A stretch of 64,000 nt of DNA from a virus (taxonomy: Duplodnaviria; Caudoviricetes), in IMG/VR virus record IMGVR_UViG_3300026549_000030, positions 32,001 through 96,000 of that record. One strand, given 5' to 3'. Of this stretch, positions 25,712-56,100 are shown piece after piece. Position 1 is the stretch's first letter. Every line of letters starts with the position of its first letter. Made by a program: the position numbers and the translations under genes. Under the pieces are notes generated by a model. The model made no database searches. It was not told the origin of the DNA and was given only the letters and a program-made list of their open reading frames with translations.

Positions 25712-26878
25712 ATGTTCAGAAACACTCTTTTCACTTCGGAGGCAGTAAGCTGCGGGCACCCCGACAAAATTTGCGACCAAATCTCTGACGCAATCCTCGA
25801 CGAGTTCCTCAGGCAAGACAGGGAATCTAAGGTTGCGGTAGAATGCTTCATTACAAACAACCTTCTCGTAATCGGTGGAGAGGCGCACTCTCACGCCGAT
25901 GTTGACGTTATCGGAATCGCCAAGAAAATCCTTACCGAGATTGGATACGACGGAACTAACGGATTCGACCCTGAATCTGCGGTATTCCTCAACACCCTTC
26001 ACGAGCAGAGCCCAGATATCAGGCAGGGCGTTGACAGAATTACCGAGGCTGAGCAGGGTGCTGGCGACCAAGGAATTATGTTCGGTTATGCCTGCAACGA
26101 AATTTCAGGAAGGTACATGCCTGCCGCAATCACGCTTGCAAACAGGACAATGTTTGTCTATGATACGCTCAGAAAGGCTGGTAAACTTCCCGGAATGCGC
26201 CCTGACGCAAAATGCCAATATACACTGAAGTATGATGAGAAGGGAGAGGCTAAGGTTGATACTATCGTTATCTCATTGCAACACGACGAGGATATTGCAT
26301 TCCAGACAATTTACATTTACGTAACGGAAACTATTCTTCCGGAAGTCATGAAAGTTCCTCAATTGGCTAAGTTTTTCGCCGATTCTTCATATACAATTTT
26401 TGTGAATCCGACAGGAAAGTTCGTTATCGGCGGCCCTCAGGGTGATACCGGGCTTACGGGGCGTAAAATTATTGTCGATACATATGGCGGCTCTTGTCCT
26501 CACGGTGGTGGTGCATTCTCTGGAAAGGACGCTTCTAAGGTTGACCGCTCGGCGGCTTACATGGCTCGCTACATTGCAAAGAACATTGTAGCAGCTAATA
26601 TCGCACAAGAAGTTACTGTTCAGTTATCATACGGAATCGGACTTTGTGAGCCTATCAGCGTTCATGTTGATACCGTTAAACCGAACTATCCTAACAGCGA
26701 AATAGAGAAGATGATCAAAATTGTTTTCCCTCTTACGCCCAACGGAATTATTAAGCATCTAAACCTAAAATATCCAAATTATCTAGAAACCGCAACATAC
26801 GGACATTTCGGATGGGAGGGACATAGTTGGGAAAAAACCAACAAGGTAAAAGAAATTAAAGACTATTTCGGAGAATAA
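25712..26878 (+). CDS. metK: S-adenosylmethionine synthetase
   Basis: FTSEAV..GHPDKICDQISDAILD, EQSPDI, GAGDQG, GGPQGDTGLTGRKIIVDTYGG, HGGGAFSGKD..KVDRSAAY, YGHFG are all intact. Confidence 0.97.
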   Translation: MFRNTLFTSEAVSCGHPDKICDQISDAILDEFLRQDRESKVAVECFITNNLLVIGGEAHSHADVDVIGIAKKILTEIGYDGTNGFDPESAVFLNTLHEQSPDIRQGVDRITEAEQGAGDQGIMFGYACNEISGRYMPAAITLANRTMFVYDTLRKAGKLPGMRPDAKCQYTLKYDEKGEAKVDTIVISLQHDEDIAFQTIYIYVTETILPEVMKVPQLAKFFADSSYTIFVNPTGKFVIGGPQGDTGLTGRKIIVDTYGGSCPHGGGAFSGKDASKVDRSAAYMARYIAKNIVAANIAQEVTVQLSYGIGLCEPISVHVDTVKPNYPNSEIEKMIKIVFPLTPNGIIKHLNLKYPNYLETATYGHFGWEGHSWEKTNKVKEIKDYFGE

Positions 26879-31589: not shown

Positions 31590-32159
31590 TTAGCCTATGT
31601 ACTTCTTAATTGTTTCACCAACGATTTTATCAATAGACTCTGCAACGTTACGATAGCTGCCCTGTCCTACACCTGCGTTGTTTAAATCGTACTGATTGAA
31701 CTGAGCCCTGTCCTGACGTGCTGATGCTGCTGCGCCCTGCGCATTATCAGCCTTCTTAGCAAATGCGTCTGCTCCGTACATTTGCTTAATTTGACGGATT
31801 TCAGAAGCCTTCCATTTATTGAGCTCTCCAACTTTCTGCTTATATTCATTTCTGAACTCTTCAATAGCAGCGTCAGCCTCTTGTTTTCTTGAATTAGCAA
31901 GTTCTGCGTTCCTCTTAGCCTTATAGTCATTTGCTCCTGCTGCAGCTGCTGTCGTTCCACCGTACTTCACGCCAGCTTTCAAGCCTGCGGCGGCGCCGCC
32001 AACAGCCGTCTTTGCATTGTCAAACGCATTACGTACTGCGTTTCCTGCACGCTTGAACCAACTGACTTCATCGATTCCCTCGGCTAAAAGGGCGCTCTTT
32101 ATGGTTTTGTTTATAACGTTCCTAAGTTGTTCTTCTGTTAATGGTACTCTTTTTTCCAT
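31590..32159 (-). CDS. Ala-rich helical protein with N-terminal LTEEQLRNVINKTIKSALLAE motif, 189 aa
   Basis: Clean ORF with upstream TATTTAT; Gly/Ala-rich segment followed by coiled coil. Confidence 0.7.
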   Translation of the reverse strand: MEKRVPLTEEQLRNVINKTIKSALLAEGIDEVSWFKRAGNAVRNAFDNAKTAVGGAAAGLKAGVKYGGTTAAAAGANDYKAKRNAELANSRKQEADAAIEEFRNEYKQKVGELNKWKASEIRQIKQMYGADAFAKKADNAQGAAASARQDRAQFNQYDLNNAGVGQGSYRNVAESIDKIVGETIKKYIG

Positions 32160-39049: not shown

Positions 39050-39095
39050 TGATGGTTACTTTAAATGTTAAACAATAAACTATATCAAATATACA

Positions 39096-40301
39096 CTAAT
39101 TTTCTTTAACAGATTCTTCGTATCTCTTAATCTCTCTCTCCGCAAAACTTTTAAACGGAGCGAAAAATGATGCAAATTTTGTGTTGTTATTGAATTCTAC
39201 GATTCCGTCCTCAACAATATACTGATAAAGGTTCTTAAAGGAGCGCCCTTCCGGGTCCTGAGGAGCATACATCATAGATTCCATAGCCTCCTCTGCCTCT
39301 TTCGACAGTAGTGGGTGCTTCAAATCTATTATTTTTGTGTTGATCTCATAGAAGTCTCCCGCATATTCCTTATTCGAAACCCCATTAACAACGTTCTCGT
39401 GAACTTTTAATGGTTTTTTCTTGTTGTCAATGCGTTCCTGTATCAATTTCTTACACCTATCTATCACCTCGTCCGCAGTAATAGCTCGGTCAAGTGCCTC
39501 TGGCATAAGTTTAAAGAACCCTTCCTCCGAAAGCCCCTTAATATTACCTATATTATCGCTCGCATCGCCTGTAAAAATCTTCTTTACAAGTACGTTGCGG
39601 TAATCATACCCGAAATTTTCCTTGAAATTCTTGTTCGTTATAAATTTCTTGATTCCTTCACGCTGATTATATATGCAAACGTCGTCTGCAAGAAGCTGTG
39701 CTAGGTCCATATCTGTAGACATAATAACAATCTTCTCATTCGGCTTCTTATGCATACAATAATATGCTATTTGATCATCTCCCTCCGTGATTTCATCAAT
39801 ATTCCACCTAATATAGAGCTCATTGAAGTACCTGCAAAGGATATCTCGCTCCCTATCGAAATTTGCATCGATAAATTTCTCCCAATCCGACTTTTCCTTG
39901 CTGTTGTACTTTTCTGCGGTTCCGTTTTTCTTGTTGAAATACTGCATCATACTGCGGACCTTTTCATTCACCTGCTTCATATAGTCAGAAATACCATAAT
40001 CAGCATAATGCTTATCTCTATTCGCCTTATATTGTGGATATTCGTAAAATCTGAGGACTCCGCTGTACTCATTATCGAAAAAGACGTAGATATATTGGAA
40101 TTCACCCTTGGTAATCATCATTCTAAGCTGAAGTAGGAACTGAAAAACGCCGCCATAGTGCAATCCGTCGGAATTTACCTTAGTATCAGCCATACAACTG
40201 AATAAAAGGCTATTTCCGTCAACTAAAAGCGTCCTAAATGGGGGTTCCTGTATTAAATCAGGGTGAACTTCCTGTATTTTTTTTCTTATTGGTTGTGGCA
40301 T
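39096..40301 (-). CDS. 5'-3' exonuclease / flap endonuclease (Pol I N-terminal / T4 RNase H-like), 401 aa
   Basis: TLLVDGNSL, YPQYKANR, EGDDQIAYY, STDMDLAQL, GDASDNIGNIKG. Confidence 0.92.
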   Translation of the reverse strand: MPQPIRKKIQEVHPDLIQEPPFRTLLVDGNSLLFSCMADTKVNSDGLHYGGVFQFLLQLRMMITKGEFQYIYVFFDNEYSGVLRFYEYPQYKANRDKHYADYGISDYMKQVNEKVRSMMQYFNKKNGTAEKYNSKEKSDWEKFIDANFDRERDILCRYFNELYIRWNIDEITEGDDQIAYYCMHKKPNEKIVIMSTDMDLAQLLADDVCIYNQREGIKKFITNKNFKENFGYDYRNVLVKKIFTGDASDNIGNIKGLSEEGFFKLMPEALDRAITADEVIDRCKKLIQERIDNKKKPLKVHENVVNGVSNKEYAGDFYEINTKIIDLKHPLLSKEAEEAMESMMYAPQDPEGRSFKNLYQYIVEDGIVEFNNNTKFASFFAPFKSFAEREIKRYEESVKEN

Positions 40302-40456
40302 ACTAGTCTAATTTTGGAAACTATATATGTTGTCCCGGTTTAAATATATAGAAAAAAAAAATAAATCCCGAAGGTGCGAATGAACCTGCTGTATTTATTT
40401 TTGTAAAAAAAGGTATTTTTTATGCGCTCCAAAGTCTCATCCATATTTCAAATATA

Positions 40457-42121
40457 TTAAATTTTCATTTTATAAACTTTGGTTCCGCAGTCATATATTC
40501 TATATAGTCCATTCCGAAAACAAAACTCATGTTCTGTCTCCTCCTTATTACAGCCATATTTTGAAACAAGAATGTCTTTCCTGTAACAGAAACGGTTTTT
40601 CCTAATTCTTCCTTCTACATAGAAATAATTTGGTGGAGATACATGGTCAAGGGTAAATCCAAGCCTTTCGTATAAATTTCCATTTGACCATCTTCTGTCA
40701 GCGTATGTGATTATTTCTTTCGGGTTTACCTGTTCAATAAAGTGTCTTAAAAGTTTTGACGCCCCGCCTATTACCATATAATTTTCTTCGTTACAAAATC
40801 TTAGTAATTCATAAGCGCCTTCTTTACTTTTATATCCAAGATTTCTCCTAAGCGTGGAAAATGTCATTACACTTATTAACTTTCCTTTATACATAAGTCC
40901 GTAATTGAATTTTCCACCAACATATCCTTGAATGTGATTTCTTTCAATGAATTCTTTTGCCTCTTTTTTCGAAAGTTCTGCAATTTGGCATTTTCTTGCA
41001 TAAACCTTATTTTCAGTTATCCCTAGTATGTTTCTTATTCTTGACTTGCAGATTTCTTTCTTAAACATCCACTCATCCTCGAAAATGTGGATAAGATGTA
41101 TACCGCGTTTCTCACACTCTTCCGTTTTCCATAGGTGATAGTTCTTATCTCTTTTTCTCTCGTCATGCCAATGCAATCCGTCAAATTCTATTGCAACTCT
41201 TTTAGATGGAATATAAACATCGAGTTCATGCGTCAATAAAACATCCCTATCTTTCTTGATAATTTTATAGTTCGGCAGAAGTTCGGATATAAAAGCATAA
41301 ATTTCCTCTTCTCCATTGGAGATAATGTATCCGCACTTCTGACAACCATTTCCACTTAAATGATAAGTCGGTAATTGTTCAAAATCCCCATGCTTCCTGC
41401 AGGTTATCGTAATGGGCGTAAAACAATCTTTATAAACAACCTTTTCGTATGAATATAAATCTCCGTGTATTGCCCTCGCATCTTTAATGAACCGCTCGGT
41501 GCTCTTCGTTCTCGAGTTCGCTCTCTTAATTTTTCCGCATTCCGGGCATCCTTGCCCTCTTAGATGCTGATGCGGCGTCTGATAAAATTCACCATGTTTC
41601 GGGCAAATAATCTTTACTTTATCCCTTACCGTCTCATAAACTACACCTGAATAGTCATATTTATCTCCGTGAATTTCTCTTGCCTTCTTTATGAATTCTT
41701 CCTTGGGAAGCCTCTGTATCTTTCCGATGTACTCTTCTGCACAAAGTGAACATCCCTTTCCTGCTAAATGTGCATACGGAGCCTGCCAAAATTCTCCGTG
41801 CTTTGGACAAATAATACACACCTTTGTATATGAATCAACATATTCAACTTTTGAATAATCATATCTTTCCTCATGAATCTTTCTTGCTTTTTCAATGAAT
41901 GTCTCTGTGGTGTATTTTTTCTTCTCAGAACGAGATTCTATTCCACATTTAGGGCATCCCTGTCCCTTAAGGTGCTGATGCGGCGATTGAAAAAAAGAAC
42001 CGTGCTTTGGGCAAATTATTTCCATTGGCTCTATGAGTTTCGTATAAACAGACTTTGAATAATCATATTTATTTCCATGCACCTTTCGGGCTCTTTCTAT
42101 TATTTGTTCTAAATTATACAT
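40457..42121 (-). CDS. Free-standing Hef-like putative homing endonuclease with four DUF723-like repeats, 554 aa
   Basis: Four HG.KYDYS..ICPKHG.F.Q.P..HL.G.GC..C repeats; ELDVYIPSKRVAIEFDGLHWH; IHIFEDEW; C-terminal ARKC..ELLRFC..GGASKL..YADRRWSNG domain. Confidence 0.85.
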   Translation of the reverse strand: MYNLEQIIERARKVHGNKYDYSKSVYTKLIEPMEIICPKHGSFFQSPHQHLKGQGCPKCGIESRSEKKKYTTETFIEKARKIHEERYDYSKVEYVDSYTKVCIICPKHGEFWQAPYAHLAGKGCSLCAEEYIGKIQRLPKEEFIKKAREIHGDKYDYSGVVYETVRDKVKIICPKHGEFYQTPHQHLRGQGCPECGKIKRANSRTKSTERFIKDARAIHGDLYSYEKVVYKDCFTPITITCRKHGDFEQLPTYHLSGNGCQKCGYIISNGEEEIYAFISELLPNYKIIKKDRDVLLTHELDVYIPSKRVAIEFDGLHWHDERKRDKNYHLWKTEECEKRGIHLIHIFEDEWMFKKEICKSRIRNILGITENKVYARKCQIAELSKKEAKEFIERNHIQGYVGGKFNYGLMYKGKLISVMTFSTLRRNLGYKSKEGAYELLRFCNEENYMVIGGASKLLRHFIEQVNPKEIITYADRRWSNGNLYERLGFTLDHVSPPNYFYVEGRIRKNRFCYRKDILVSKYGCNKEETEHEFCFRNGLYRIYDCGTKVYKMKI

Positions 42122-42206: not shown

Positions 42207-42695
42207 TTAGAAACAAAGAATAGCGTAATCTATTACGATTGTGGCTGTTATATCAGCAAGCGCGTCATCAGAATACTGAAGTGTACCGAAGTTTACCGTG
42301 CTAGGCCACGAATTTTTCAATACCCACTTCTGAGCACAAACTCCCGTAGGGTCGAGCATTTCAAGTTCAAGATCCCTCTTGTAGCCTGCCGCATAGCCCT
42401 GACGTCCTGTTACAGACTCTGAGACGAGACGAATCCACTCCATAATTGCCTGAGAAGCGCTCGGGGCGATAGGATCGCGGAATGTCATCTGTATTGTGTC
42501 CCAAGTGTAACGTCCTGCCACCCATGTTGAGGTGTTGAGGAAGTGAATCTCGGTACTGCCCTGTGTAATAGAAGGTCTATTTGCTGACTGAAGCATCCAC
42601 TCTGAAATACCTAAATCGCTAGGGAACCTAACAACCCATCTATTTTTACGCAATGGCTCGAATTGGAGCGGCATTTTGATTAGTAAATCATTCAT
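42207..42695 (-). CDS. Tail tube protein (T4 gp19-like), 162 aa
   Basis: EPLRKNRWVVRF..RPSI..VAGRYTWDTIQMTFRD..MEW..GYKRDLELEMLDPTG..KWVLKNSWP..FGTLQY. Confidence 0.88.
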   Translation of the reverse strand: MNDLLIKMPLQFEPLRKNRWVVRFPSDLGISEWMLQSANRPSITQGSTEIHFLNTSTWVAGRYTWDTIQMTFRDPIAPSASQAIMEWIRLVSESVTGRQGYAAGYKRDLELEMLDPTGVCAQKWVLKNSWPSTVNFGTLQYSDDALADITATIVIDYAILCF

Positions 42696-42793
42696 ATCCC
42701 GTATATCTTTATCTTATTCTTATTTCATTTTTATTATAAATACTTTAATAATGAAAAAATAGAAAAAAATAGCAAATAAGTATAACATTATAC

Positions 42794-42824
42794 AAAAAAC
42801 TCACCCTTCTTTCGGAAGAGTGAG
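42794..42824 (-). terminator. Rho-independent terminator after the TonB-dependent receptor
   Basis: Minus strand CTCACTCTTC-CGAAA-GAAGGGTGAG-TTTTTT. Confidence 0.85.
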
Positions 42825-42851
42825 CTAATTGTTTGATATTTTGCAACTAAA

Positions 42852-45800
42852 TTAGTTGAAAAGATATCTTAATCCGAACTGAACCTGCCAGCACTGTGAG
42901 TTATTCACAACATAGTCATAAGACTGTGAAATGTACTCGCCCGCAGAGTTCTTAGCAATTGAGAACGTAGGCTCTCCTGCTGCGTTAACACCCTCATACT
43001 TCATGAAACGAGTGTTGTTTGAGATATCGCTGTTCTTGTAAACACCCCAATTGGAATTGAAGATATTACCGACATTAAGAACGTCGATTGAGAATTGGAA
43101 GTTATGTTGCTGTTTTCCTGTCTTGAACTTAAAGTTGTGCGCCCAACGGAAGTCGAAGCGATTAACCCAAGGTGAACGAGCGGCATAAGCCTCTGCATAT
43201 TCTCCCTTATGCTTGCTGAGGTAGCTATCCTGAGCAACATAAGCGTCGTATGCTGCTGCATATTCTGTTGCATTGTCCTTCCACTTGATATCTGAACCGT
43301 GAGGATAGATATACATAAGATCGTTGTTGATTCCGTCACCATTCATATCATTGGTATAGCAATATGAGTTTCCATAAGGACTCAAGCCAGTGTAGAAGAG
43401 GCTGAATTCCATAAGGTCAGTCAAACCGCCATATTGGAAAGGAATTGAATAGTTCACAGAAGCGATAAGCTTGTGAGGAATGACGTAACGAGAACGCTGA
43501 ACGTCTGCAAAATTAGGACTGTCAACGGTGATTAAGCCCTGCCAAGTCGAAAGAGGGTCAGAACCGGGAAGTCCGGAAACCTCCTTAGACTCGGTGAAGG
43601 TATAAGCTGCCATAAGTCTCAAATCCTTAACGGGTTCGGCATTGAGGGTAATGTTTCCAATATATCCGTAGCCCTTATTGGTATTAGTGAGATATGGAGC
43701 GTTCTTACCTGCGTTGATATAACCCTTGTCTGCAGGATAGATAAGACGGTTGTCGGCACCAACAAAGCGATTCCATTCACCTGTGTTGTCCTTAATATTG
43801 ATATTGTCAACAACTACTCCGTAAACAGTCTTGTTGAAAATTCCCTCGACAGTAACATTGAACGGGAAACTGACAGGAACTGCCCAATCAAAAGCAAGAG
43901 AAGTCTTCCAAATCTGTGGCATATGGAAATTCTCGTCAACTCCTGACATTGTTGAACCTGCGCTGTGCTTATCATCGGAAATTTCGGTAGGAAGTCCGAG
44001 CTTGCTAACAATATCGCTAACGTTCGTAATCATACCGCCGTCAAAAGCGTGGAGCTTATCGTTCTTAGAAACAAGCTGTCCATTAGCCCACGTTGACTTA
44101 TACTGAACGGAATTCTGAACAAGTCCTGCGTTAGTGGGCATATTGGTAAAGTAAACGAGAGGAAGTCTGCCTTGGAACAAACCAGTGCCACCGCGTACCT
44201 TCAAAGTCTTGTCGCCGTAAACGTCCCATACGAAGCCAACGCGAGGGGAAACCTGAACGCGGTTGTTGGGCCACTTACCTGTATCAATTTTCTTTCCGTC
44301 ACGGAAGTCGTATGCATAAATAGCATTATTTCTTGCGATATCAGCGTTGCTGAAAATCAAGTCGTCAAGACGAATACCATAGGTGAGTTTGAAGAATTCG
44401 CCAAGGTTCCACTCGTCCTGTGCATAAAGTCCAATCTGATTGAAAGTAACCTGAGCATTAGGATTGAGATTACCGTTCCAACCATATGTAACGGCGAAAG
44501 ACTCAGGTGTTCCATTCAGAACGTCCGTAATCGTAGCCTCGTCAGTCCAAGCGTAGCGATAGTATCCTGCGCCGTTACGCATATAAGCGTTATTTGCGAA
44601 CTGATGCTCATAATTTGCACCAACAACAAGCTTGTGATTACCAAGAAGAAGGGTAACATCGTCCTTTACGGTCCAAACCTTGTTATGAACACCATTGTTC
44701 CAAGTAAAGAGCTCGTAACCGAGAGACATATAAGGCTGCCAGCTGCCGGAGGCGTCCTGCTTGATAATATCAACGTGAGGGAATGCGCTCGAATTTGAAC
44801 CACGAATGTCCTCAATGTTTGAATATGTCGCAAGGAACTGATTTGAAACATTATTACTGAATCTCGCATTGTAATCAACAGACCATGAAGACACGTTATT
44901 CTCCATAGAAAACATGTTGTTTGCGAATGCCATTGACTGATTACCAACACGATAAGTACCGTTAAGACGATAGCCAGTATCGGAAGAGTTTCCATTAGGA
45001 GTATTCCAAGCTACGTTCTGTGTCTGATTGTAACGAACTGCAAGGTGATGTCCGGGGGCAATATTCCAATCAATTCTTGCAAGAAGTTTCTTATTGGATT
45101 CGTCGCCCGGGAAACTTGTGTAAGAACCCGTATCATAGCCATATTTTTCCTTCATATATGACTGTACAGCAGCCAAATCTGACGCAAGTGTACGGGAAAC
45201 ATTACCCTTTGCATCTTCACCGCCATTGTTAGCACGGTACGTAATTACCTCACCAGGCTGCTTAGTCTGCTCGTAGTTAACGAAGAAGAAAACCTTATTC
45301 TTCACAATAGGACCACCAAGTGTGAAACCGTAAACAGTTCTCGACTCTGCAGCGCGTGCGCCAAGGTCAACGCCGTTAATCTTGTTGCCACGCGTGTCCT
45401 GATTCTTAAAATAGGTGTAAACGCTACCCTTGAACGTGTTTGTACCTGACTTGGTAATAGCATTGACGCCACCACCGATAAAATTAGTCTGTCTTACGTC
45501 AAATGGTGCAATAACAACCTGAACCTCCTCAATGGCGTCCAATGAAATTGGATTACCGCCGCCCGGAAGTGCATCTGAAAGTCCGAAATTGTTGTTGAAG
45601 TTAGCGCCGTCAACAGTGAAGTTGCTTGAACGTCCGTCACCTCCTGCGAAGCTCATTCCATTCGCATAAGGGGAATACTTTGCAACGTCCTCAATTCCTC
45701 TGTTGATCATCGGAAGACTTGTAATGTCTCTTGCCGTAACGTTGGTGGATGCACCTGTTTTTTCTGAATTAAACTTCGACGTTGAGGCAACTACAATAAC

Positions 45801-46157
45801 CTCGTCAAGTGTCTCGGAGGGCCAAAGAACCGCGTCCTGTGTGTAAGCCTCTCCAAGCTTGAGAGAAACGTCCTGAAATTTTACGGTATTGCAGCCGAGG
45901 AACGAAACTGAGATTTCGTATGGATAGCCCGGGCGAGCACCTTCAATTGTATAACGCCCATCTGAGTTAACGACTGCATGATACTGCGAGCCACTCGGTG
46001 TGTGAACCGCAACTACGACGGCTCCTGTGAGCGCGTCACCATTGTTATCAACGACTTTACCGTTGATACTGGATGTCGTAACCTGCGCATAGGCGCTGAT
46101 TGACACCATCATTGTAATCGCAATAAGCGAAAGTGTTTTAAATAGTTTTTTAATCAT
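42852..46157 (-). CDS. Oar-like TonB-dependent outer-membrane receptor, 1101 aa
   Basis: Signal peptide ending AYA-Q, carboxypeptidase-regulatory-like domain, plug (ISLDAIEEVQV..GGGVNAITKSGTN), barrel strands (GLYAQDEW, SPRVGF.WD), C-terminal QVQFGLRYLFN. Confidence 0.93.
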   Translation of the reverse strand: MIKKLFKTLSLIAITMMVSISAYAQVTTSSINGKVVDNNGDALTGAVVVAVHTPSGSQYHAVVNSDGRYTIEGARPGYPYEISVSFLGCNTVKFQDVSLKLGEAYTQDAVLWPSETLDEVIVVASTSKFNSEKTGASTNVTARDITSLPMINRGIEDVAKYSPYANGMSFAGGDGRSSNFTVDGANFNNNFGLSDALPGGGNPISLDAIEEVQVVIAPFDVRQTNFIGGGVNAITKSGTNTFKGSVYTYFKNQDTRGNKINGVDLGARAAESRTVYGFTLGGPIVKNKVFFFVNYEQTKQPGEVITYRANNGGEDAKGNVSRTLASDLAAVQSYMKEKYGYDTGSYTSFPGDESNKKLLARIDWNIAPGHHLAVRYNQTQNVAWNTPNGNSSDTGYRLNGTYRVGNQSMAFANNMFSMENNVSSWSVDYNARFSNNVSNQFLATYSNIEDIRGSNSSAFPHVDIIKQDASGSWQPYMSLGYELFTWNNGVHNKVWTVKDDVTLLLGNHKLVVGANYEHQFANNAYMRNGAGYYRYAWTDEATITDVLNGTPESFAVTYGWNGNLNPNAQVTFNQIGLYAQDEWNLGEFFKLTYGIRLDDLIFSNADIARNNAIYAYDFRDGKKIDTGKWPNNRVQVSPRVGFVWDVYGDKTLKVRGGTGLFQGRLPLVYFTNMPTNAGLVQNSVQYKSTWANGQLVSKNDKLHAFDGGMITNVSDIVSKLGLPTEISDDKHSAGSTMSGVDENFHMPQIWKTSLAFDWAVPVSFPFNVTVEGIFNKTVYGVVVDNINIKDNTGEWNRFVGADNRLIYPADKGYINAGKNAPYLTNTNKGYGYIGNITLNAEPVKDLRLMAAYTFTESKEVSGLPGSDPLSTWQGLITVDSPNFADVQRSRYVIPHKLIASVNYSIPFQYGGLTDLMEFSLFYTGLSPYGNSYCYTNDMNGDGINNDLMYIYPHGSDIKWKDNATEYAAAYDAYVAQDSYLSKHKGEYAEAYAARSPWVNRFDFRWAHNFKFKTGKQQHNFQFSIDVLNVGNIFNSNWGVYKNSDISNNTRFMKYEGVNAAGEPTFSIAKNSAGEYISQSYDYVVNNSQCWQVQFGLRYLFN

Positions 46158-46189
46158 ATTTTTAAAATTGGTTTAAAAAAGTATCGTGT

Positions 46190-46221
46190 CAAATATACGT
46201 ATTGTCCTAATAAAAAGCAAA
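46190..46221 (-). promoter_or_regulatory. Consensus Bacteroidetes primary-sigma promoter for the receptor gene
   Basis: Minus strand TTTG-N20-TATATTTG (-33/-7), about 32 nt upstream of the ATG. Confidence 0.75.
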
Positions 46222-46249
46222 AACCCGAACAGTAAACCTACTATTCGGG
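46219..46249 (-). terminator. Probable terminator after the recA-like gene
   Basis: CCCGAAcAGTA-AACC-TACTaTTCGGG with an adjacent A-run on the plus strand. Confidence 0.6.
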
Positions 46250-46256
46250 AATTTTC

Positions 46257-47408
46257 CTATTCGATTGGAACCACTTCCTGCGAAACCTTGCCAACCTCTG
46301 AGAATGTAATATCACTCTCGGTAATATTCTCATCCATTCCGCTCTTCATAGCAAGAATCTTCGGGAGTTCACTCTTCTTATAATCGTTAATATCGTTCTC
46401 GGTAATAATTCCGTTATGAACGCAACACATTGTACCGCTGTACGTTACGTTATAAGGAGTCGGAAGCTGATTCTTGTAAACAGAAATCTTGGTAACGGTG
46501 CCATACTCGGTTTCATTACCTTTTACAGTTGCTTTAAGTTTCTTGGTACCCTGCGTAGCAACACCACCAACATGGATACCAAGACGGCAACCGTACTTGA
46601 AAGCCTCACCACCGCTGTTTGCGATTGCGGTTGCGCCACCCATACTATTCTGACTGTCCTTCCAAATCTTGTTAATAGCAATCATACCATTGGTGTACGG
46701 TGTACCAACTTCCTTAGAAGCCGCAATTCTTGTAAAGATAGGCTTAAAGGTTGCGTTGATTGCACCAGCGTCGAACATATTGTTGCCGCTCTTACTTGTG
46801 TAAGATTTCCAAGACTGAATACTTCCGATTGAATCCCAAATGAAAAGAATTGGCATTGGAATATTGCCGTTATGCTGTTCGTCAAGGAATGTATTGATAA
46901 TATAACCAATATCTTCAATAACAGCCACGTCTCGCTTGTTCTTTGTCTTTTCACCCTTGGAATAATCCATATCGCCACAGAATTCGCACATTTTAGTAGG
47001 GGTAAAGAGAACATAATCTCCTTCCCAGTCAACGATTCCATATTCGCCTGTTTCAGGATCGTTTCCGTAAACGGGTTCGATATCCATTCCACAATCCTTT
47101 GCATATTGGAAATCGAAATTTCCCTCTGTCTCGAAAATAACAGGGAGAATACCCTGCTTCATAGCCGCAGCAATCGCGAGGTTCTTAAGCGTTGACTTAC
47201 CTGTGTTCGTCCAACCTCTTACTACACTCGTTCTTCCGAGAGGAAATCCGGGAAGTTTCGTTGCTTCCTGAAACGCCTTGGGCATAATAACCCATTCGAG
47301 TTCCTTATCGGCAACCTTTCCTACCTTTTCTCCGAGGAAATTTGCCTTAAAATCCTTCACGCTGAATGAAGGGACTTCTTTTTTCTTTAATGGTTGTTTA
47401 GCTGCCAT
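46257..47408 (-). CDS. RecA/UvsX-like recombinase, 383 aa
   Basis: GFPLGR..Walker A GWTNTGKST, ETEG, FIWDSIGS, IAINKIW, SGGEAF, VYKNQ. Confidence 0.88.
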   Translation of the reverse strand: MAAKQPLKKKEVPSFSVKDFKANFLGEKVGKVADKELEWVIMPKAFQEATKLPGFPLGRTSVVRGWTNTGKSTLKNLAIAAAMKQGILPVIFETEGNFDFQYAKDCGMDIEPVYGNDPETGEYGIVDWEGDYVLFTPTKMCEFCGDMDYSKGEKTKNKRDVAVIEDIGYIINTFLDEQHNGNIPMPILFIWDSIGSIQSWKSYTSKSGNNMFDAGAINATFKPIFTRIAASKEVGTPYTNGMIAINKIWKDSQNSMGGATAIANSGGEAFKYGCRLGIHVGGVATQGTKKLKATVKGNETEYGTVTKISVYKNQLPTPYNVTYSGTMCCVHNGIITENDINDYKKSELPKILAMKSGMDENITESDITFSEVGKVSQEVVPIE

Positions 47409-47458: not shown

Positions 47459-48058
47459 TTAGTCAATAATCTCATCAATGACACCGAGTTCAAGCGCGGT
47501 TTCAGCGTCCATGAACCAATCCTTTTTGCACTTGACTACTTCGTCGAGCATTTCTCTTGTAATTTTTGTTCTGGAAAGGATTATGTCATCTATTTTATCT
47601 CTCAGCCTCTTCCATTCTTCTGTAGATTCTTTTATGTCTTCCAATTTTCCGATTTTGAACCCCGAAATGTCGTGATAGAGATATGTTGAATTTTTGGAGC
47701 CGTACCGTTTTGTCCCTGCCTGCAGTGCGAATATTCCACAAGACATTGCTTTTCCGACTACTTTAATGTTGACAGTATATTTTCTTGTAAGGGACTTGAT
47801 TAAATCATAAATTGCAAGTCCATCATACACGACGCCGCCATAAGTGGAAAGATAAATGTTTATTTCAGGCAGTTTGAAATCAGACGCATATATTCCCGCG
47901 CTTTCTAAAATAGTCTTGTTATTCCTGATAATTTTTTCGTCTCTCTGTTTTATTTCACAGATATCCTTTTCCAATTTTTCAAGCGTACTTTCTTCAATAT
48001 CACCGGTGAAATAAATGTCATGGCTTTCATCGAAAAGACTTTTAATCGTTGTCTCCAT
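47459..48058 (-). CDS. ClpP-like serine protease, 199 aa
   Basis: IYLSTYGGVVYDGLAIYD, catalytic AMSCG, YLYHD, DWFMDAETALELGVIDEI. Confidence 0.9.
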   Translation of the reverse strand: METTIKSLFDESHDIYFTGDIEESTLEKLEKDICEIKQRDEKIIRNNKTILESAGIYASDFKLPEINIYLSTYGGVVYDGLAIYDLIKSLTRKYTVNIKVVGKAMSCGIFALQAGTKRYGSKNSTYLYHDISGFKIGKLEDIKESTEEWKRLRDKIDDIILSRTKITREMLDEVVKCKKDWFMDAETALELGVIDEIID

Positions 48059-48641
48059 TGTTTCCTTTGCTTTTTAAAAATTTCATTCTGCCATACTCCT
48101 TTCGGCTTACAGACTTGTAATTGTCTTCTGCTCCAACCTGTATCTGTTCGCCGCTTGTTACAATATTCCCGTTTTGATCAATCCTCGCATTGAAAATATT
48201 TTTATTTCCGTCCTCGCATTGGGATTTTATTTCTTCAAACGTGTCGGCGATTTCGAAAAGACGCCGGCTACCCGGAAACAGATGTGTCTGGAAATCTGTT
48301 CTAAGCCCATAACATATCACATTGATATCGAATTCATCGACGAGCAATGCTAACTCATCTACTTGTTTTTCCGTTAAAAACTGAGCCTCATCCACAAGAA
48401 GCCACTTAACATCAGTATTCGCCAAATCTATCTTTTCGAAAAAAGATTCTTCCGGAGTTATGGTGCAGCATTCCTTATCACCAAGTGGACGACTATGGAT
48501 AACACCCTTGTCACGCGTATCTACGCTACTCTTAAAAATAACGTATGGTATTCCGCGTTCCTCGAAATTATATGCTTTAGCGAGCAAGAGCATACTCTTG
48601 CCCGCATTCATGCACCCGTAGTTGAATATCAGCTTACACAT
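48042..48641 (-). CDS. tdk: Thymidine kinase
   Basis: YGCMNAGKS, VDEAQFL, CYGLRTDF..LFPGS; likely start MCKLIF at 48641. Confidence 0.93.
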   Translation of the reverse strand: MCKLIFNYGCMNAGKSMLLLAKAYNFEERGIPYVIFKSSVDTRDKGVIHSRPLGDKECCTITPEESFFEKIDLANTDVKWLLVDEAQFLTEKQVDELALLVDEFDINVICYGLRTDFQTHLFPGSRRLFEIADTFEEIKSQCEDGNKNIFNARIDQNGNIVTSGEQIQVGAEDNYKSVSRKEYGRMKFLKSKGNNGDND

Positions 48642-48642
48642 A

Positions 48643-49728
48643 TTAGAACGGTAACTCCTCTGTTTCATCTGGTTCCGTGTCATCCTCAGCAGCGGAAAGT
48701 GCCTTCTGCTTTGCAGCTTCGATAGCCTTATCAGCCCTCTTCTCAGCTTCTTGCTTCTGCTCTTCCCTCTTCTCTTGATCTTCTGAGTTCTTTATCTTTG
48801 GAATCCATTTCTTATTTTCCTTATCGTAGAACGGAACGCCACCATCAATAATGATTGACAGATAGTCGTAAGGCTTCGCAACGAATACATCGCTCCATAC
48901 CTTATCGTCGTTAATCCACTTGTCGATAAGTTCCGGGTCCGGTGAAAGCGGTTTATTCTTACCGTAGTCAACGATAGAAATGCTAGTCTTGTCGGTAGGA
49001 CGCCCTTCCTTATCGTAAACACGCGAAATCGTAACCTTTAAGTCGCGTCCATTCTCCACGTCAAGAATGTTCTCGGGTTCGAAGCCATCAGGAAGTTCTC
49101 CATTATTGTCAGCCTTGGCCTCATCGATACTTTCCTGCCACCTGTCCTTGAAGAGTTTTTTGATAAGGTTCTTCGGGTCCTTGAAGTCACTGCGGACTGT
49201 TACCTTCCAGAACTTAGGACCGTCGTCCTCCGCACCGCGCTCAATGCAACGCATAACGCAAACCTCTGAGGGCTTGTTTGCAAGTGAAATTTTCTTCCAC
49301 CTGTCAGCCTCGAGCCTACACTTACTTTCCTCTGAAAGCTCCCCTTTCTTCTTTGCTTCCTCTGCCTTGTTCGTCCACTCCTTCATATTTTCATATGCTA
49401 TGTGGTTGAGTTCGCAGAACGGGCACTTCTCGCCGAGAGTCTCGTGATCAATATCCTCAGTTCTGTTAAGACATACGTAAGACTTCCAAGGTGTCTTCGG
49501 AGAAACCTCGGGACTAACCTGCACGGTGTGCATCCATACTGTCTTGAATGGTGAATTTGAATCCTTGTCGATTGGGAGGAGGCGTATTCTTAGCTCTTTA
49601 GAATCCTGCCCTTTTGCAAGTTTAACGTTTAGATAGTTTTTTTCGCTAAAGGCATTTGTCTGCCTTGGCACTCTCGCTTCGTCTTCCAACGCGTCTGGAG
49701 AGATGTTTTGATGCTTGTAATCAGCCAT
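48643..49728 (-). CDS. Single-stranded DNA-binding protein (T4 gp32-like), 361 aa
   Basis: RIRLLP..H..C..CPFC Zn ligands, ILDVENGRDL, acidic C-terminal tail ending EELPF. Confidence 0.8.
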   Translation of the reverse strand: MADYKHQNISPDALEDEARVPRQTNAFSEKNYLNVKLAKGQDSKELRIRLLPIDKDSNSPFKTVWMHTVQVSPEVSPKTPWKSYVCLNRTEDIDHETLGEKCPFCELNHIAYENMKEWTNKAEEAKKKGELSEESKCRLEADRWKKISLANKPSEVCVMRCIERGAEDDGPKFWKVTVRSDFKDPKNLIKKLFKDRWQESIDEAKADNNGELPDGFEPENILDVENGRDLKVTISRVYDKEGRPTDKTSISIVDYGKNKPLSPDPELIDKWINDDKVWSDVFVAKPYDYLSIIIDGGVPFYDKENKKWIPKIKNSEDQEKREEQKQEAEKRADKAIEAAKQKALSAAEDDTEPDETEELPF

Positions 49729-49839
49729 AATAGTTATAAAATTTTGATAAGTTATTTTTAAATTTACCTACGTTCCAAATATACAAAATATATGCGAAAT
49801 TTTTATTATCGGTCAAATTTTTCATACTACTATAAATAC

Positions 49840-49910: not shown

Positions 49911-50459
49911 CTATTCAAATTTATACTTGTTCCAATCTATACTATCCTTCTTGTTCCATCCTTCTTGGAGACAAGTTGTTATATATCCAAGGCATTTATA
50001 GTAGAAATCCGTGAATTCTGCCATATCCGTAAAATCATGGTATTGAGGATTGCTCATTTCGCCGAATTTTAGACGGAACGGCAATGATGCGCCGTTCGTT
50101 TGATATGCCAAATCATATGCCGCTTTATAATTAAACTGGTTTTCTGCTGATAGATATACATTGATGCTTTCCCCACTTGCAGAAGTCCATGCGAACCCTG
50201 TCAAAATTTTGTTGTCTGTTTCGCTATTTAAGTATTCAAGTATCATGGCTTCAATCTCATGCAATTCAGGTTTTATTTTGAATGTTTCCTGCATCCATGA
50301 TGCGAACACTTCATCTTCCTCGTATTGTCCTGTTGGGTTTCCTTCGCTATCAAATATCTCTTTCATGATTGGTTGATAGTCCCATTCTACAACATATAGT
50401 TTGTTGTTGTAGTTCGAGGTTTCTTTATAGTCCTCTTTTTTTCCTACGTTCCTAAACAT
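49911..50459 (-). CDS. DUF4376-like Bacteroidales phage protein, 182 aa
   Basis: LSAENQFNYKAAYDLA.QT.G..LPF..KFG..EGW.KKDSIDW; overlaps the RT stop by 8 bp. Confidence 0.6.
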   Translation of the reverse strand: MFRNVGKKEDYKETSNYNNKLYVVEWDYQPIMKEIFDSEGNPTGQYEEDEVFASWMQETFKIKPELHEIEAMILEYLNSETDNKILTGFAWTSASGESINVYLSAENQFNYKAAYDLAYQTNGASLPFRLKFGEMSNPQYHDFTDMAEFTDFYYKCLGYITTCLQEGWNKKDSIDWNKYKFE

Positions 50460-51663
50460 TGCTTATACATTTATCCTTTAAAACAACTGCCTTTCTGTAG
50501 TTTGGAAGAAAATGAAAATATTCCCTTATTGTTTCTTTTTCGAACGTTTTGTTCATTATTTTCCAACATTTAAACTTTCCAAGATAGCCACAATATGAAT
50601 TGATGGTATTTCTATATCGTTTAATATCTACTTTTGACACATTTCCTTTATAAATATCCAATTCAATTAATTTTATCTTCTTTTTGAAAGATTTTATTGC
50701 TCTGTTCGACGGATATCTTCTATATGGCTTAATACATGCGCCAAGAAATTTGAAATTCTGTGTCAGTTTGAATACATGTGTCTTCTTCATATTTAATTTT
50801 AAACCGAGTTCTTTGCTAAGGAAATCAGATATAATTTTAATAAGCGAATTCAGATATTCTTTGTCAGTATGAAGAATGAACGCATCGTCCACGTATCTTC
50901 CGTAATGCTTGATTTTCAACACGCGTTTTATGTATTGATCCAGTACATTAAGGTAGATGTTACTAAACATTTGGCTCATTAAATCTCCAATTATTAGGCC
51001 GATTCCGTCAGGTGTATAAAACAATGATTTTTCCTTTGGAAGATTATCCCAACGGTGGCGACTGCCAATTATCTTACAATTCTCAAGCGGCTGTCTTGTG
51101 AGAATGGTTTCGAGAAGATAATATATAAGATTGAAATCAATAACATCATCCAATAAGTTTCCGTTTATTGTTCTGTAACGGAATTTTTCAAGTTCGCTTT
51201 TAACAATGTTCAGAAAACGTGAACGGTTGATACTCATGAAATATCCCGATATATCAATCGTCAATCCGTATGCACTGAGAGTATAATTGTTGGTGACCGA
51301 ACGTATATGATGCTCAGCACGTTCTATTCCGAAAAGTGTTCCTTTATATTTACGGCAAGAATATGAATCGTATATGAACGTCCGTTCAAAAATCTGAGAA
51401 ATTTGGTTAAATATGAAATGGCTAACAACTCTGTCCCTAAACGCAGGGGCGAAAATTTCGCGTTTTACTGGCTCTTCAATTATAAAACAAACAAGGGGAG
51501 AAGGTTTGTAAATTCTTTTCAGAAGTTCCTCTCGTAAATCCCATATATTGCTTTCAAGGTTTAATTCAAATTGAAGTTGAGATGGATTGTTCCGTTCGTT
51601 TTTGCGGGCAGCAAGGTATGCTTTCATAAGTGCGTCATATAACGCATCTCTTTCTATTGTCAT
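50452..51663 (-). CDS. DGR reverse transcriptase, 403 aa
   Basis: EPVKREIFAPAFRDRVV, FIYDSYSCR..KGT, DISGYF.SI, GLIIGDLMSQ (DGR-type IGxxxSQ), YGRYVDD, FLG. Confidence 0.95.
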   Translation of the reverse strand: MTIERDALYDALMKAYLAARKNERNNPSQLQFELNLESNIWDLREELLKRIYKPSPLVCFIIEEPVKREIFAPAFRDRVVSHFIFNQISQIFERTFIYDSYSCRKYKGTLFGIERAEHHIRSVTNNYTLSAYGLTIDISGYFMSINRSRFLNIVKSELEKFRYRTINGNLLDDVIDFNLIYYLLETILTRQPLENCKIIGSRHRWDNLPKEKSLFYTPDGIGLIIGDLMSQMFSNIYLNVLDQYIKRVLKIKHYGRYVDDAFILHTDKEYLNSLIKIISDFLSKELGLKLNMKKTHVFKLTQNFKFLGACIKPYRRYPSNRAIKSFKKKIKLIELDIYKGNVSKVDIKRYRNTINSYCGYLGKFKCWKIMNKTFEKETIREYFHFLPNYRKAVVLKDKCISNV

Positions 51664-51694
51664 AACGGTATTGTGTGCAGGTATTAAGTGCTGA

Positions 51695-51880
51695 GGGCGG
51701 GCAACTGGGCGAACCGAGAAGCCGTTTGCACGGTTGTTGTTGTTCTGCGGGTTAACATCTTCTGAATTGAAGTTGAGGTTATACGCGTTGTTCTGCGAGT
51801 TCGAAGACGCGAGCCAATAGTTGCCGTTACTTCCTATGCCGTTTATGCCACCGCTTCCGTTGTTGCGGTTCCCTGCGGCT
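51695..51880 (-). repeat. DGR template repeat (TR), 186 bp
   Basis: Aligns without gaps to 52581-52766 with 12 mismatches, all at TR adenines on the coding strand; 18 AAY codons in frame. Confidence 0.97.
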
Positions 51881-52570: not shown

Positions 52571-54070
52571 TTAAGTCTGGGGGCGGGCAACTGGGCGAAC
52601 CGAGAAGCCGTAGGCACGGCTGTTGTTGTACTGCGGGCTAACACCTTCTGAATTGAAGTAGAGGTAATACGCGTTGTTCTGCGAGCTCGAAGACGCGAGC
52701 CAATAGTTGCCGTTACTTCCTATGCCGTTCATGCCACCGCTTCCGCTGTAGCGGTTCCCTGCGGCTTGGAAAAAGTTCCCATCCCAAGTCCAACCGTTGT
52801 CCCAAGTACCGCCATTGCTTGTTGAAAAACCAAGGAATGCGTTACCGCAGGGAATATTGAATCCTACAGGGCATGGGTCATAAACTGTTTTAACAATATT
52901 CTTATCAGAATTGCCAGTTGAAATCTGCGAAGCGTCCCAATAATTGTAAAAGTCGACAGGCGTGTCTCCGTTTTGCCACCAATTGTAATGTGTGTCTTCA
53001 TATGTGTTGAACACGTTTGGGTTTTGAATTGTTGCAGCAAGAGAGCTTGCAGTTGAAGTGATATTAAAAGAACCAACCGCCGCAGATGCTGAATTACGGA
53101 GCATAGGGTCTTTACGTCCCCACTGATAGTAAGGCGAAGTACCCTTTTTACTATCGGCGGCGTCCTTCACCCATCCTAGGCTAACGTCAAGGAAGTTATA
53201 TGTCTTGCTGTTTGTGTTAGTATGGGCAAACGTTGACAGCTCGAACGGATACGACCATATATGCCAACTCCACATAATCTGCCCGTTACCGTCTTTGATT
53301 GCTATCGTTGCATTTCCGCCAAGAGAAGGAATGGATGACACATGGAATCGTAAATACTTACAAAGTTCCCTATTTGTCAAATAAATGTCGTCTATGATGA
53401 AGTCAGATGTGTCTATGAGGACGGATTGCCCCGATACGGCATCGATACCCGTATCTTCTTCTATAAATGGGATTGTGATTTGTTCATTTAGATAATTGTA
53501 GAATGGGCTTGTATATGTGCCTGTTGCTTGAGTATATGCTGATGCGTTTGTTTCCCCGTTCATAATGGCGCAACCATATACGAGAGGAAATTCGTAATAT
53601 CCTTCATGTGATATAACGTAACAGTTTGCGGTTTCTCGTAACGAAACCGTGCCACCCGTTATATCCAACATGGATAAATCGGTATACGTCGCTGAATCGT
53701 ATGATACAGTAAGACGACGTGTACTGTTTTTCTTTGATATATATGAAACGGTATCTGGCGTATAATATCCACCAACTGTACTAAACGATACTGTATATTG
53801 CTCAAACATGGGTACAATAAACAATAGCGTCGTTCCGTTCCATTCCTTTGATTCTATATTACCATTCACGGTAACGGAAACTATTGCGCCGATAATATCC
53901 TGCGAAACAGGACATGTTAATGTAACATAGAGATTTTCATCGGCCATGCCGATGTTTGTTAGAACCGTTTGCTTCTCTTCCTTTGTAAGCGTTTGCTCGG
54001 ATGCATACGATACAAATTTCGCTTCATTTAACTCGGTTTGAGTAATGTATTTATTTTGATTATCAGCCAT
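52571..54070 (-). CDS. DGR target protein: fibre-like N-terminus, Ig-like domain and Bacteroidetes fimbrial-type C-terminal CLec-fold domain, 499 aa
   Basis: EQTLTKEEKQTVLTNIG; TANCY, WSWHIW, YYQWGRKDP, VYDPCPVG, GNYW.AS, GFSVRPV; carries the VR. Confidence 0.88.
   Translation of the reverse strand: MADNQNKYITQTELNEAKFVSYASEQTLTKEEKQTVLTNIGMADENLYVTLTCPVSQDIIGAIVSVTVNGNIESKEWNGTTLLFIVPMFEQYTVSFSTVGGYYTPDTVSYISKKNSTRRLTVSYDSATYTDLSMLDITGGTVSLRETANCYVISHEGYYEFPLVYGCAIMNGETNASAYTQATGTYTSPFYNYLNEQITIPFIEEDTGIDAVSGQSVLIDTSDFIIDDIYLTNRELCKYLRFHVSSIPSLGGNATIAIKDGNGQIMWSWHIWSYPFELSTFAHTNTNSKTYNFLDVSLGWVKDAADSKKGTSPYYQWGRKDPMLRNSASAAVGSFNITSTASSLAATIQNPNVFNTYEDTHYNWWQNGDTPVDFYNYWDASQISTGNSDKNIVKTVYDPCPVGFNIPCGNAFLGFSTSNGGTWDNGWTWDGNFFQAAGNRYSGSGGMNGIGSNGNYWLASSSSQNNAYYLYFNSEGVSPQYNNSRAYGFSVRPVARPQT
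52581..52766 (-). repeat. DGR variable repeat (VR), 186 bp, at the 3' end of the target gene
   Basis: Encodes AAGNRYSGSGG..GFSVRPVARP; diverges from TR at IMH (CCCCAGACTTAA versus CCTCAGCACTTAAT). Confidence 0.97.
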
Positions 54071-56043: not shown

Positions 56044-56100
56044 AAATGCTCGAGATATTATCCCGAGCAAATATACTGAAAAAATAATAGAGTTACAATT

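Follow-up and report, generated by a model that had tools for sequence, protein, structure and literature searches.

The window analysed here is a 64,000-nt stretch of viral DNA (positions 32,001 to 96,000 of IMG/VR virus record IMGVR_UViG_3300026549_000030), part of a 242-kb record that is 68% complete by CheckV and comes from a T4-like, standard-code jumbo phage (genome ~350-390 kb) of rumen or gut Bacteroidales. Its minus strand carries a gene for a 1101-aa Oar-like TonB-dependent transporter (TBDT), which is best explained as an old host-derived accessory import gene of a clade of T4-like jumbo phages (probability about 0.5). That a working transporter is made in infected cells is very probable; a nucleic-acid or organophosphate cargo is put forward tentatively, at rather less than even odds. 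The evidence consists of an intact gene with a recognisable fold, one conserved site with clean absences in relatives, purifying selection, phage-like codon composition and the neighbourhoods of bacterial orthologues. An earlier note on this DNA had offered three readings: nutrient import feeding replication, superinfection exclusion or surface remodelling and, more speculatively, a phage-installed receptor. Nutrient import is the best supported of these, and the bacterial neighbourhoods sharpen it to a substrate class.

The full-length receptor with signal peptide and barrel, as first described, is borne out by the open reading frame (ORF), Pfam, an AlphaFold2 (AF2) model and Foldseek. Pfam recognises CarboxypepD_reg (PF13620) at residues 30-111 (1e-15), the Oar-type barrel family OMP_b-brl_4 (PF25183) at residues 234-1053 (2e-50) and, more weakly, TonB_dep_Rec_b-barrel (5.6e-7). 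A PF13620 N-domain ahead of a PF25183 barrel, in the absence of a SusC signature, places the protein in the Oar-like subclass; no family match is found in PHROGs, nor any in NCBIfam with its SusC/RagA models included. The predicted signal peptide combines a basic MIKKLFK segment, a hydrophobic core and a cleavage motif that is kept in all copies, and the mature N-terminus QVTTSS is kept across the family. The TonB box occurs in every aligned phage and bacterial copy. Of the plug, which the earlier note had also claimed, only a weak trace is found: a profile built from 32 members of the family hits the plug in Cir, the colicin I receptor (2hdf, E 1.2e-6), TonB box and classic motifs included, whereas Pfam Plug reaches 18.9 bits against a cut-off of 23.9 and the model is of low confidence in this region. 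In the AF2 model (mean predicted local distance difference test score, pLDDT, 68; barrel 70-90) DSSP assigns 22 long strands, the barrel has 11 long outer loops, and Foldseek returns TonB-dependent transporters only, namely FusA (4zgv, 2.5e-22), YddB, Cir and FepA (E 1e-22 to 1e-17). The C-terminal aromatic signal for the β-barrel assembly machinery (BAM) is approximate: in the ending ...LRYLFN, Y1098, F1100 and N1101 are invariant in the family, and Phe is thus penultimate with Asn as the last residue.

The architecture, a CarboxypepD_reg N-domain and a large barrel, is shared at the level of the broad subclass with Myxococcus xanthus Oar, reported to be needed for secretion of the protease PopC (PMC6434023). 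By this likeness the phage protein could be an export channel through which the phage releases a periplasmic protein. This is very improbable, as no conserved secreted partner stands beside the transporter in any phage context, and Oar is a namesake of the subclass, with family-level similarity only and no close sequence relationship.

The gene forms its own transcription unit. Read 5' to 3' on the minus strand, the order is uvsX stop, uvsX terminator, TTTG-N20-TATATTTG, 32 nt and the transporter ATG, and the uvsX terminator would isolate the gene from upstream transcription. Terminator-equivalent hairpins lie downstream of every phage and bacterial copy examined. The own promoter and strong terminator proposed earlier are both confirmed, the promoter by its position and conservation and not by motif count: the full TTTG-N20-TATATTTG pattern has one match in the window against 1.84 expected by chance. 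A TATATTTG box precedes the transporter gene in three related loci (L002, L007 and L089) and a TACCTTTG variant in L003; in L005, where the gene begins 28 nt past uvsX, no promoter was found before it. Boxes of the TATATTTG type also precede the gp32-like gene, a 269-aa gene and other replication genes, in intergenic positions on the minus strand. The total count of the box (8 against 5.3 expected) is not significant, and its recurrence ahead of these genes suggests a host-type promoter class shared across the replication module. Early or middle transcription of the transporter by the host polymerase may be inferred from these signals.

Relatives of the transporter were found in a metagenome protein collection, and the contigs of eleven were looked up. 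Copies that are 74-89% identical stand on nine independent contigs, each with neighbours of phage type. On six of the nine the gene sits at the same junction, uvsX-TBDT-(small genes)-exonuclease-DnaB (L002, 373-kb contig, 89%; L003/L004, 387-kb, 79%; L005, 80%; L089/L090, 76%, eleven contigs; L108). In a rearranged relative (L007, 331-kb contig) it lies elsewhere, near DNA polymerase; L091 and L109 are other phage backbones that carry it (PHROG matches, many small ORFs), and one copy (P0051) stands on a 310-kb contig of phage-like appearance. The doubt about contiguity raised in the earlier note is answered by these contigs, which rule out an assembly chimera. Single-protein IMG/VR scans for transporter relatives returned none, an alignment-based scan gave one partial match, and the 'phages' GenBank collection yielded only a match of 32% identity. 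In L109 (3564-4724 and 12445-12912) the transporter is found among genes for IMP dehydrogenase (IMPDH), nucleoside 2-deoxyribosyltransferase and Thg1, again nucleotide metabolism.

An IMG/VR scan with UvsX gave 13 related loci. Eight span the junction and none of the eight has the transporter, including two at 88% UvsX identity. The alignment of loci L005 and L095 runs to the uvsX end and resumes 70 nt past the transporter stop, and the clean 3.4-kb indel between them consists of the gene and its terminator only. Across relatives the junction holds the transporter, an HNH gene, a pair of 136-aa and 601-aa genes, a 309-aa gene with an NAD-dependent epimerase, or small ORFs. The uvsX/exonuclease junction is a variable cargo hot spot of this phage group. 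The transporter is 76-80% identical between phages whose UvsX proteins are only 37-58% identical, and the rank order of identity tracks the backbone; a single old capture followed by repeated loss would be the simplest account.

Pairwise comparison of the phage copies gives a synonymous divergence (dS) of at least 1.4 (saturated), a nonsynonymous divergence (dN) of 0.07-0.19 and a dN/dS of 0.03-0.08 wherever it is computable. The dN/dS check suggested earlier thus returns strong purifying selection. The GC content at third codon positions (GC3) is 0.45 for the transporter in the window, 0.32-0.56 for neighbouring phage genes and 0.67-0.77 for bacterial orthologues. Because low dN/dS at saturated dS is combined with phage-like GC3, the transporter is an old, selected phage gene. 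It has the marks of a phage moron or auxiliary metabolic gene, being host-derived, variably present, equipped with its own signals and under purifying selection. A recent passenger gene or assembly chimera without phage function, for which the slightly deviant GC and GC skew of the gene relative to the window mean might speak, is refuted by the nine contigs, by the dN/dS values, by GC3 ameliorated to phage values and by an identity of at most 74% to any bacterial gene. The near identity to a host gene that the earlier note had held out as a sign against a phage gene is likewise absent.

The distribution of conservation along the protein bears on what is being selected. Mean identity in the 41-leaf phage group is 0.88 for the plug, 0.84 for the strands, 0.80 for the outer loops and 0.65 for the N-domain, and the loop/strand identity ratio, 0.95, equals that of bacteria. 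Conservation peaks in those parts on which gated transport depends, and no excess divergence is seen at the surface. TBDTs are common as phage receptors, the promoter is of host type, and the gene, which some close relatives carry and others lack, has the accessory character common among exclusion genes. The barrel might replace, mask or compete with host receptors, with the result that fewer rival or sister phages adsorb and transport is not the selected function. Such a role has been proposed for phage β-barrel outer-membrane proteins (OMPs), citing lambda Lom blocking LamB (bioRxiv 10.64898/2026.10.24.761521). Surface remodelling or superinfection exclusion is nonetheless unlikely here and is not favoured. 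A TonB box and plug would be of no use to a mask, and yet no other parts are as well conserved once synonymous divergence has become saturated; comparison of the 41-leaf phage group with bacteria reveals no diversification of surface loops of the kind that receptor conflict would leave; and the transporter accompanies nucleotide-metabolism genes in several phage backbones.

The probable source of the gene can be narrowed down. A scan of one genome per species gave at least 594 homologues, of which 80 were kept (~52-74% identity), nearly all labelled Bacteroidota. The orthogroup is unusually conserved, a Flavobacterium orthologue being ~70% identical to some Bacteroidales ones. Two trees (FastTree, 201 sequences; fast IQ-TREE with the SH-like approximate likelihood-ratio test, SH-aLRT, 40 sequences) agree in placing all context-verified phage copies in one clade (FastTree 0.92; aLRT 96.2), with weak internal nodes and a rumen Bacteroidales group (L010, L070) as sister. 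One bacterial lineage falls inside this clade, the metagenome-assembled genome (MAG) RGIG10132 from yak rumen with its relatives, and groups with the L091 phage copy (aLRT 98.9). The phage-specific clade that the earlier note had suggested looking for is found as regards the verified phage copies, but it is not free of bacteria. At least two phage-bacterium transfers, or an unresolved topology, would be needed to explain the nesting.

The RGIG10132 orthologue (JAGCUK010000094.1; L006/L009, P0049) is the best cellular match: the two proteins share 74% identity from end to end and agree in domain order, TonB box and C-terminus. The bacterial gene is divergent from metK (with SAM-II riboswitch) and is followed by BACON proteins, a BACON-Endonuclease_NS nuclease, an Exo_endo_phos_3 enzyme and a DdbC-like transporter. 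The metK-transporter arrangement is ancestral and also occurs in L010, L017, L070, L074, L087, L088 and L110; since RGIG10132 retains it, its transporter gene is native. The bacterial gene has a GC3 of 0.72 against 0.45 in the phage, and the phage has taken the transporter alone. The RGIG10132 lineage is probably close to both donor and host, and the transporter points to rumen Bacteroidales related to this MAG as the host lineage. In bacterial relatives the divergent metK with its SAM-II riboswitch is found at L009:6541-7883 and L074:6533-7803. The phage has a metK of its own (25712-26878), and joint capture of metK and transporter is unlikely, the phage MetK being only 48% identical to that of RGIG10132, but the coincidence deserves notice.

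The nature of the cargo was approached through the 80 species-representative bacterial loci, in which ORFs were called and clustered and recurrent clusters annotated with Pfam. This follows the earlier suggestion to seek substrate clues beside bacterial homologues, and it yielded such clues. In 23 of the 80 loci genes of nucleic-acid or phosphoester type lie within 8 kb, mostly adjacent and co-oriented. They encode BACON-Endonuclease_NS, Exo_endo_phos_3, NPP-type phosphodiesterases (in nine loci, five of them directly downstream), 5'-nucleotidase, a BACON + OB-fold lipoprotein, or a DdbC/DUF5689-like pair. In another nine loci the orthologue has ribonucleotide reductase (RNR) directly downstream. 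No recurrent SusD, peptidase or glycoside-hydrolase partner was seen among the orthologue neighbourhoods, and the one functional theme that recurs near them is that of nucleic-acid and phosphoester enzymes.

In a Phocaeicola MAG (L031:2984-18670) an NPP phosphodiesterase, a 1056-aa Oar-like transporter, the 1122-aa orthologue, a DdbC-like transporter, a DUF5017 protein and an Exo_endo_phos enzyme stand in one array, which appears to be an expanded nucleic-acid/phosphoester locus. A paralogue 48-50% identical to the phage protein is followed by a BACON + OB-fold lipoprotein and lies beside nucleases in L011:12871-16173, L016:3036-6302, L018:3002-6316 and L083:11559-14831; it appears to be a second kind of transporter for nucleic-acid uptake, distinct from DdbC. 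It has the same architecture as the phage protein and a lid of nucleic-acid-binding type, whereas the phage orthogroup is lid-less; an orthologue proper is followed by a BACON + OB-fold lipoprotein in L074 only.

An importer of a different nutrient (peptides or proteins, glycans, a cofactor such as B12, or a metal chelate), with the link to nuclease loci a coincidence, is as unlikely as masking or exclusion, and the two are rated equally possible. Housekeeping genes are the only neighbours in 48 loci, the best fold matches, FusA and YddB, are protein importers, and the nrdJ-type RNR downstream in nine loci could hint at B12. Against it stand the lack of any recurrent partner for other nutrients and the sole recurrence of nucleic-acid and phosphoester enzymes. 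The idea of a B12 receptor, taken from the nrdJ adjacency, was rejected, as no cobalamin riboswitch is present in five RNR-linked loci, two nuclease-linked loci or the phage leader.

An experimentally supported model for such neighbourhoods is ddbABCDEF of Bacteroides thetaiotaomicron, for which DNA utilization has been shown by genetics and in which the products of DNA breakdown are taken up with the help of surface and periplasmic nucleases and a TonB-dependent transporter (Sharan et al., PNAS 2025, PMC12478041). Bacterial orthologues of the phage transporter adjoin DdbC/DUF5689-like pairs, the DdbC/DdbD signature, and the same nuclease families. The phage protein itself belongs to a separate sequence cluster (c0, with DdbC in c3), is without DUF5689 lid or nuclease partner, and is thus not a DdbC. 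Fjoh_3841 (A5FD66) of Flavobacterium johnsoniae is an orphan PF13620 TBDT induced only by phosphate depletion (PMC8115612). It is of the same subclass (only CarboxypepD_reg recognised), of similar size (120 kDa) and likewise an orphan; any orthology with the phage protein would be putative, and the likeness is not used as evidence. The 120 best-ranking relatives of the Flavobacterium orthologue, all of at least 69% identity, include no F. johnsoniae protein.

On the preferred reading of an accessory import gene, the host RNA polymerase would transcribe the transporter from the Bacteroidota-type promoter alongside the replication genes. The protein would be exported by Sec, inserted in the outer membrane by BAM and energised by the host TonB-ExbBD, none of which the 242-kb record encodes. 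Dependence on the host TonB system is expected because TonB (TonB_C) and ExbB, as well as OmpA, are absent from the 242-kb record (~68% complete). The transporter would then act as a real gated importer that gives the infected cell extra uptake capacity, with the phage supplying the outer-membrane step only. The likeliest cargo would be a nucleic-acid-derived organophosphate (oligonucleotides or nucleotides), processed by periplasmic enzymes of the host, and the nucleotide enzymes of the phage (tdk, nrdD) could feed the imported material into replication of a ~350-390 kb genome. A more tentative extension is that with such additional channels infected cells would salvage debris of DNA and RNA, largely from neighbours lysed in the same phage epidemic, and put its nucleotides and phosphorus into replicating the ~370 kb genome, in a viral 'recycling' loop at the outer membrane; this is put somewhat below the cargo proposal itself.

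Several observations weigh against this reading or its cargo. The neighbours in the other 48 of the 80 loci are housekeeping genes (metK, PEPCK, PGI, ABC-F, Kdo transferase), and the cargo proposal is guilt by association from 32 of the 80. The chance expectation for the count of 23 is roughly 6%, an estimate and not a measurement, and the loci are phylogenetically non-independent. The phage gene belongs to an 'orphan' orthogroup and is neither DdbC nor the paralogue paired with the OB-fold lipoprotein. The fold would also suit a cargo of peptide or protein, since the top structural matches, FusA and YddB, are protein importers. The plug is poorly modelled (pLDDT below 50 over residues 115-240). 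The transporter is absent from close phage relatives and so is dispensable. Secreted nuclease (Endonuclease_NS), NPP phosphodiesterase, 5'-nucleotidase and nucleoside symporter are all absent from the incomplete 242-kb record.

The third reading in the earlier note made the transporter a receptor installed for the phage's own protein diversified by a diversity-generating retroelement (DGR). The DGR itself is real, with a reverse transcriptase (RVT_1) at 50452-51663 and a 190-nt pair of template and variable repeats (TR/VR, 51691-51880 and 52577-52766, 93% identity), and it lies 4-8 kb from the transporter gene. Apart from this proximity no link joins the two. The regions around the transporter in L002-L005, L089 and L108 have no reverse transcriptase, and on a cell already doomed by lytic infection such a receptor would capture progeny. 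The receptor role is unsupported and even less credible than export.

Phage-borne TBDTs as a phenomenon have already been reported. A survey of October 2026 describes 1,603 β-barrel OMPs in 1,303 huge phages, finds gut Bacteroidota phages rich in 22-stranded OMPs and includes a Lak-phage TBDT that is transcribed (bioRxiv 10.64898/2026.10.24.761521). The rarity of complete TBDTs in phage genomes, assumed in the earlier note, is outdated by it. The present case resembles those of the preprint in being an intact host-type TBDT of a >200-kb gut Bacteroidota phage whose bacterial homologues are all Bacteroidota. It differs from the Lak-phage TBDT in its T4-like, standard-code carrier of ~350-390 kb. 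Receptor interference is the role that the preprint favours, and no substrate is given there; the present analysis contributes the orthogroup, an insertion hot spot with clean presence and absence, the selection regime, the probable donor lineage and a substrate hypothesis. With the general phenomenon known, the value of the case lies in a specific, testable hypothesis. Import across the outer membrane is an unusual point of viral intervention, most known auxiliary genes acting inside the cell, and purifying selection across phages with recombinases only 37% identical indicates that the transporter clearly pays its way. If nucleic-acid debris is the cargo, extracellular DNA would be a pool on which giant phages of gut and rumen draw to build their large genomes. 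Viral lysis, the turnover of extracellular DNA and the newly described DNA-utilization loci of Bacteroidales would thereby be linked, and a first functional handle would be gained on an uncharacterised, highly conserved orphan transporter orthogroup of most Bacteroidota.

Table 1. Coordinates of the transporter gene, its signals and its surroundings (window positions unless a locus is named).
Feature	Position	Strand	Basis or remark
Transporter coding sequence, 1101-aa Oar-like TonB-dependent transporter (P0001)	42852..46157	(-)	ORF, Pfam, AF2 model, Foldseek
Sec signal peptide, residues 1-24, cleavage between AYA and Q	46086..46157	(-)	sequence and family alignment
Periplasmic CarboxypepD_reg-like N-terminal domain, residues 30-111	45825..46070	(-)	PF13620 1e-15; pLDDT 70-84
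TonB box LDEVIVVAS, residues 117-125	45783..45809	(-)	alignment, including with Cir TonB box
Plug domain, residues ~127-240	45438..45779	(-)	Cir plug profile match E 1.2e-6; Pfam Plug below cut-off
22-strand β-barrel, 11 long extracellular loops, residues 243-1101, end ...LRYLFN	42855..45431	(-)	Pfam, AF2 model, Foldseek
Bacteroidota-type promoter: -33 TTTG, 20-nt spacer, -7 TATATTTG	46190..46221	(-)	motif search; ends 32 nt before ATG
Transporter intrinsic terminator, 12-bp stem, T-run	42798..42826	(-)	sequence, hairpin analysis
uvsX intrinsic terminator, 11-bp stem, loop GGTT, T-run	46224..46249	(-)	sequence, hairpin analysis
TATATTTG (-7 type) boxes	39086-39093, 40449-40456, 46190-46197, 49776-49783, 56068-56075	(-)	intergenic, ahead of replication-module genes
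Variable segments of the uvsX/exonuclease junction	window 46157-46257, 42695-42852; L095:8149-10558; L096:8137-9169; L089:9394-11565; L005:11427-13221		
UvsX/RecA-like recombinase, upstream flank of insertion site	46257..47408	(-)	Pfam, PHROGs, junction comparison
gp19-like tail-tube paralogue, 162 aa, downstream neighbour, outside transporter cassette	42207..42695	(-)	Pfam, PHROGs
HNH/homing endonuclease, 554 aa, nearest mobile-element gene	40457..42121	(-)	phrog_559, 4.8e-142
5'-3' exonuclease, downstream flank of variable junction	39096..40301	(-)	Pfam, junction comparison
Thymidine kinase, cytoplasmic salvage enzyme, 1.9 kb upstream	48042..48683	(-)	Pfam, PHROGs; functional link inferred

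The surroundings of the gene are those of a phage replication module, with genes for a gp19-like tube protein, an HNH homing endonuclease, 5'-3' exonuclease, DnaB, NrdD, UvsX, a ClpP-like protease, thymidine kinase and a gp32-like protein; tdk, nrdD, gp32 and the exonuclease gene lie within 8 kb of the transporter gene. Its placement between phage core genes, without SusD, integrase or transposase among its neighbours in the window, agrees with the earlier description, with an HNH homing endonuclease 0.7 kb downstream. SusD does not adjoin the transporter in the related phage loci L002-L005, L089 and L108 either, and there is thus no SusC/SusD pair. A ClpP-family protease gene (PHROG 'head maturation protease', 47459-48058) lies between tdk and uvsX with a 17-nt overlap with tdk; the close relative L002 (95% UvsX identity) has no gene at this position. 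The gp19-like paralogue and the HNH endonuclease form a pair amid the replication module, distant from the tail genes, and recur together in the rearranged relative L007 (14212-16294; 82% and 45% identity).

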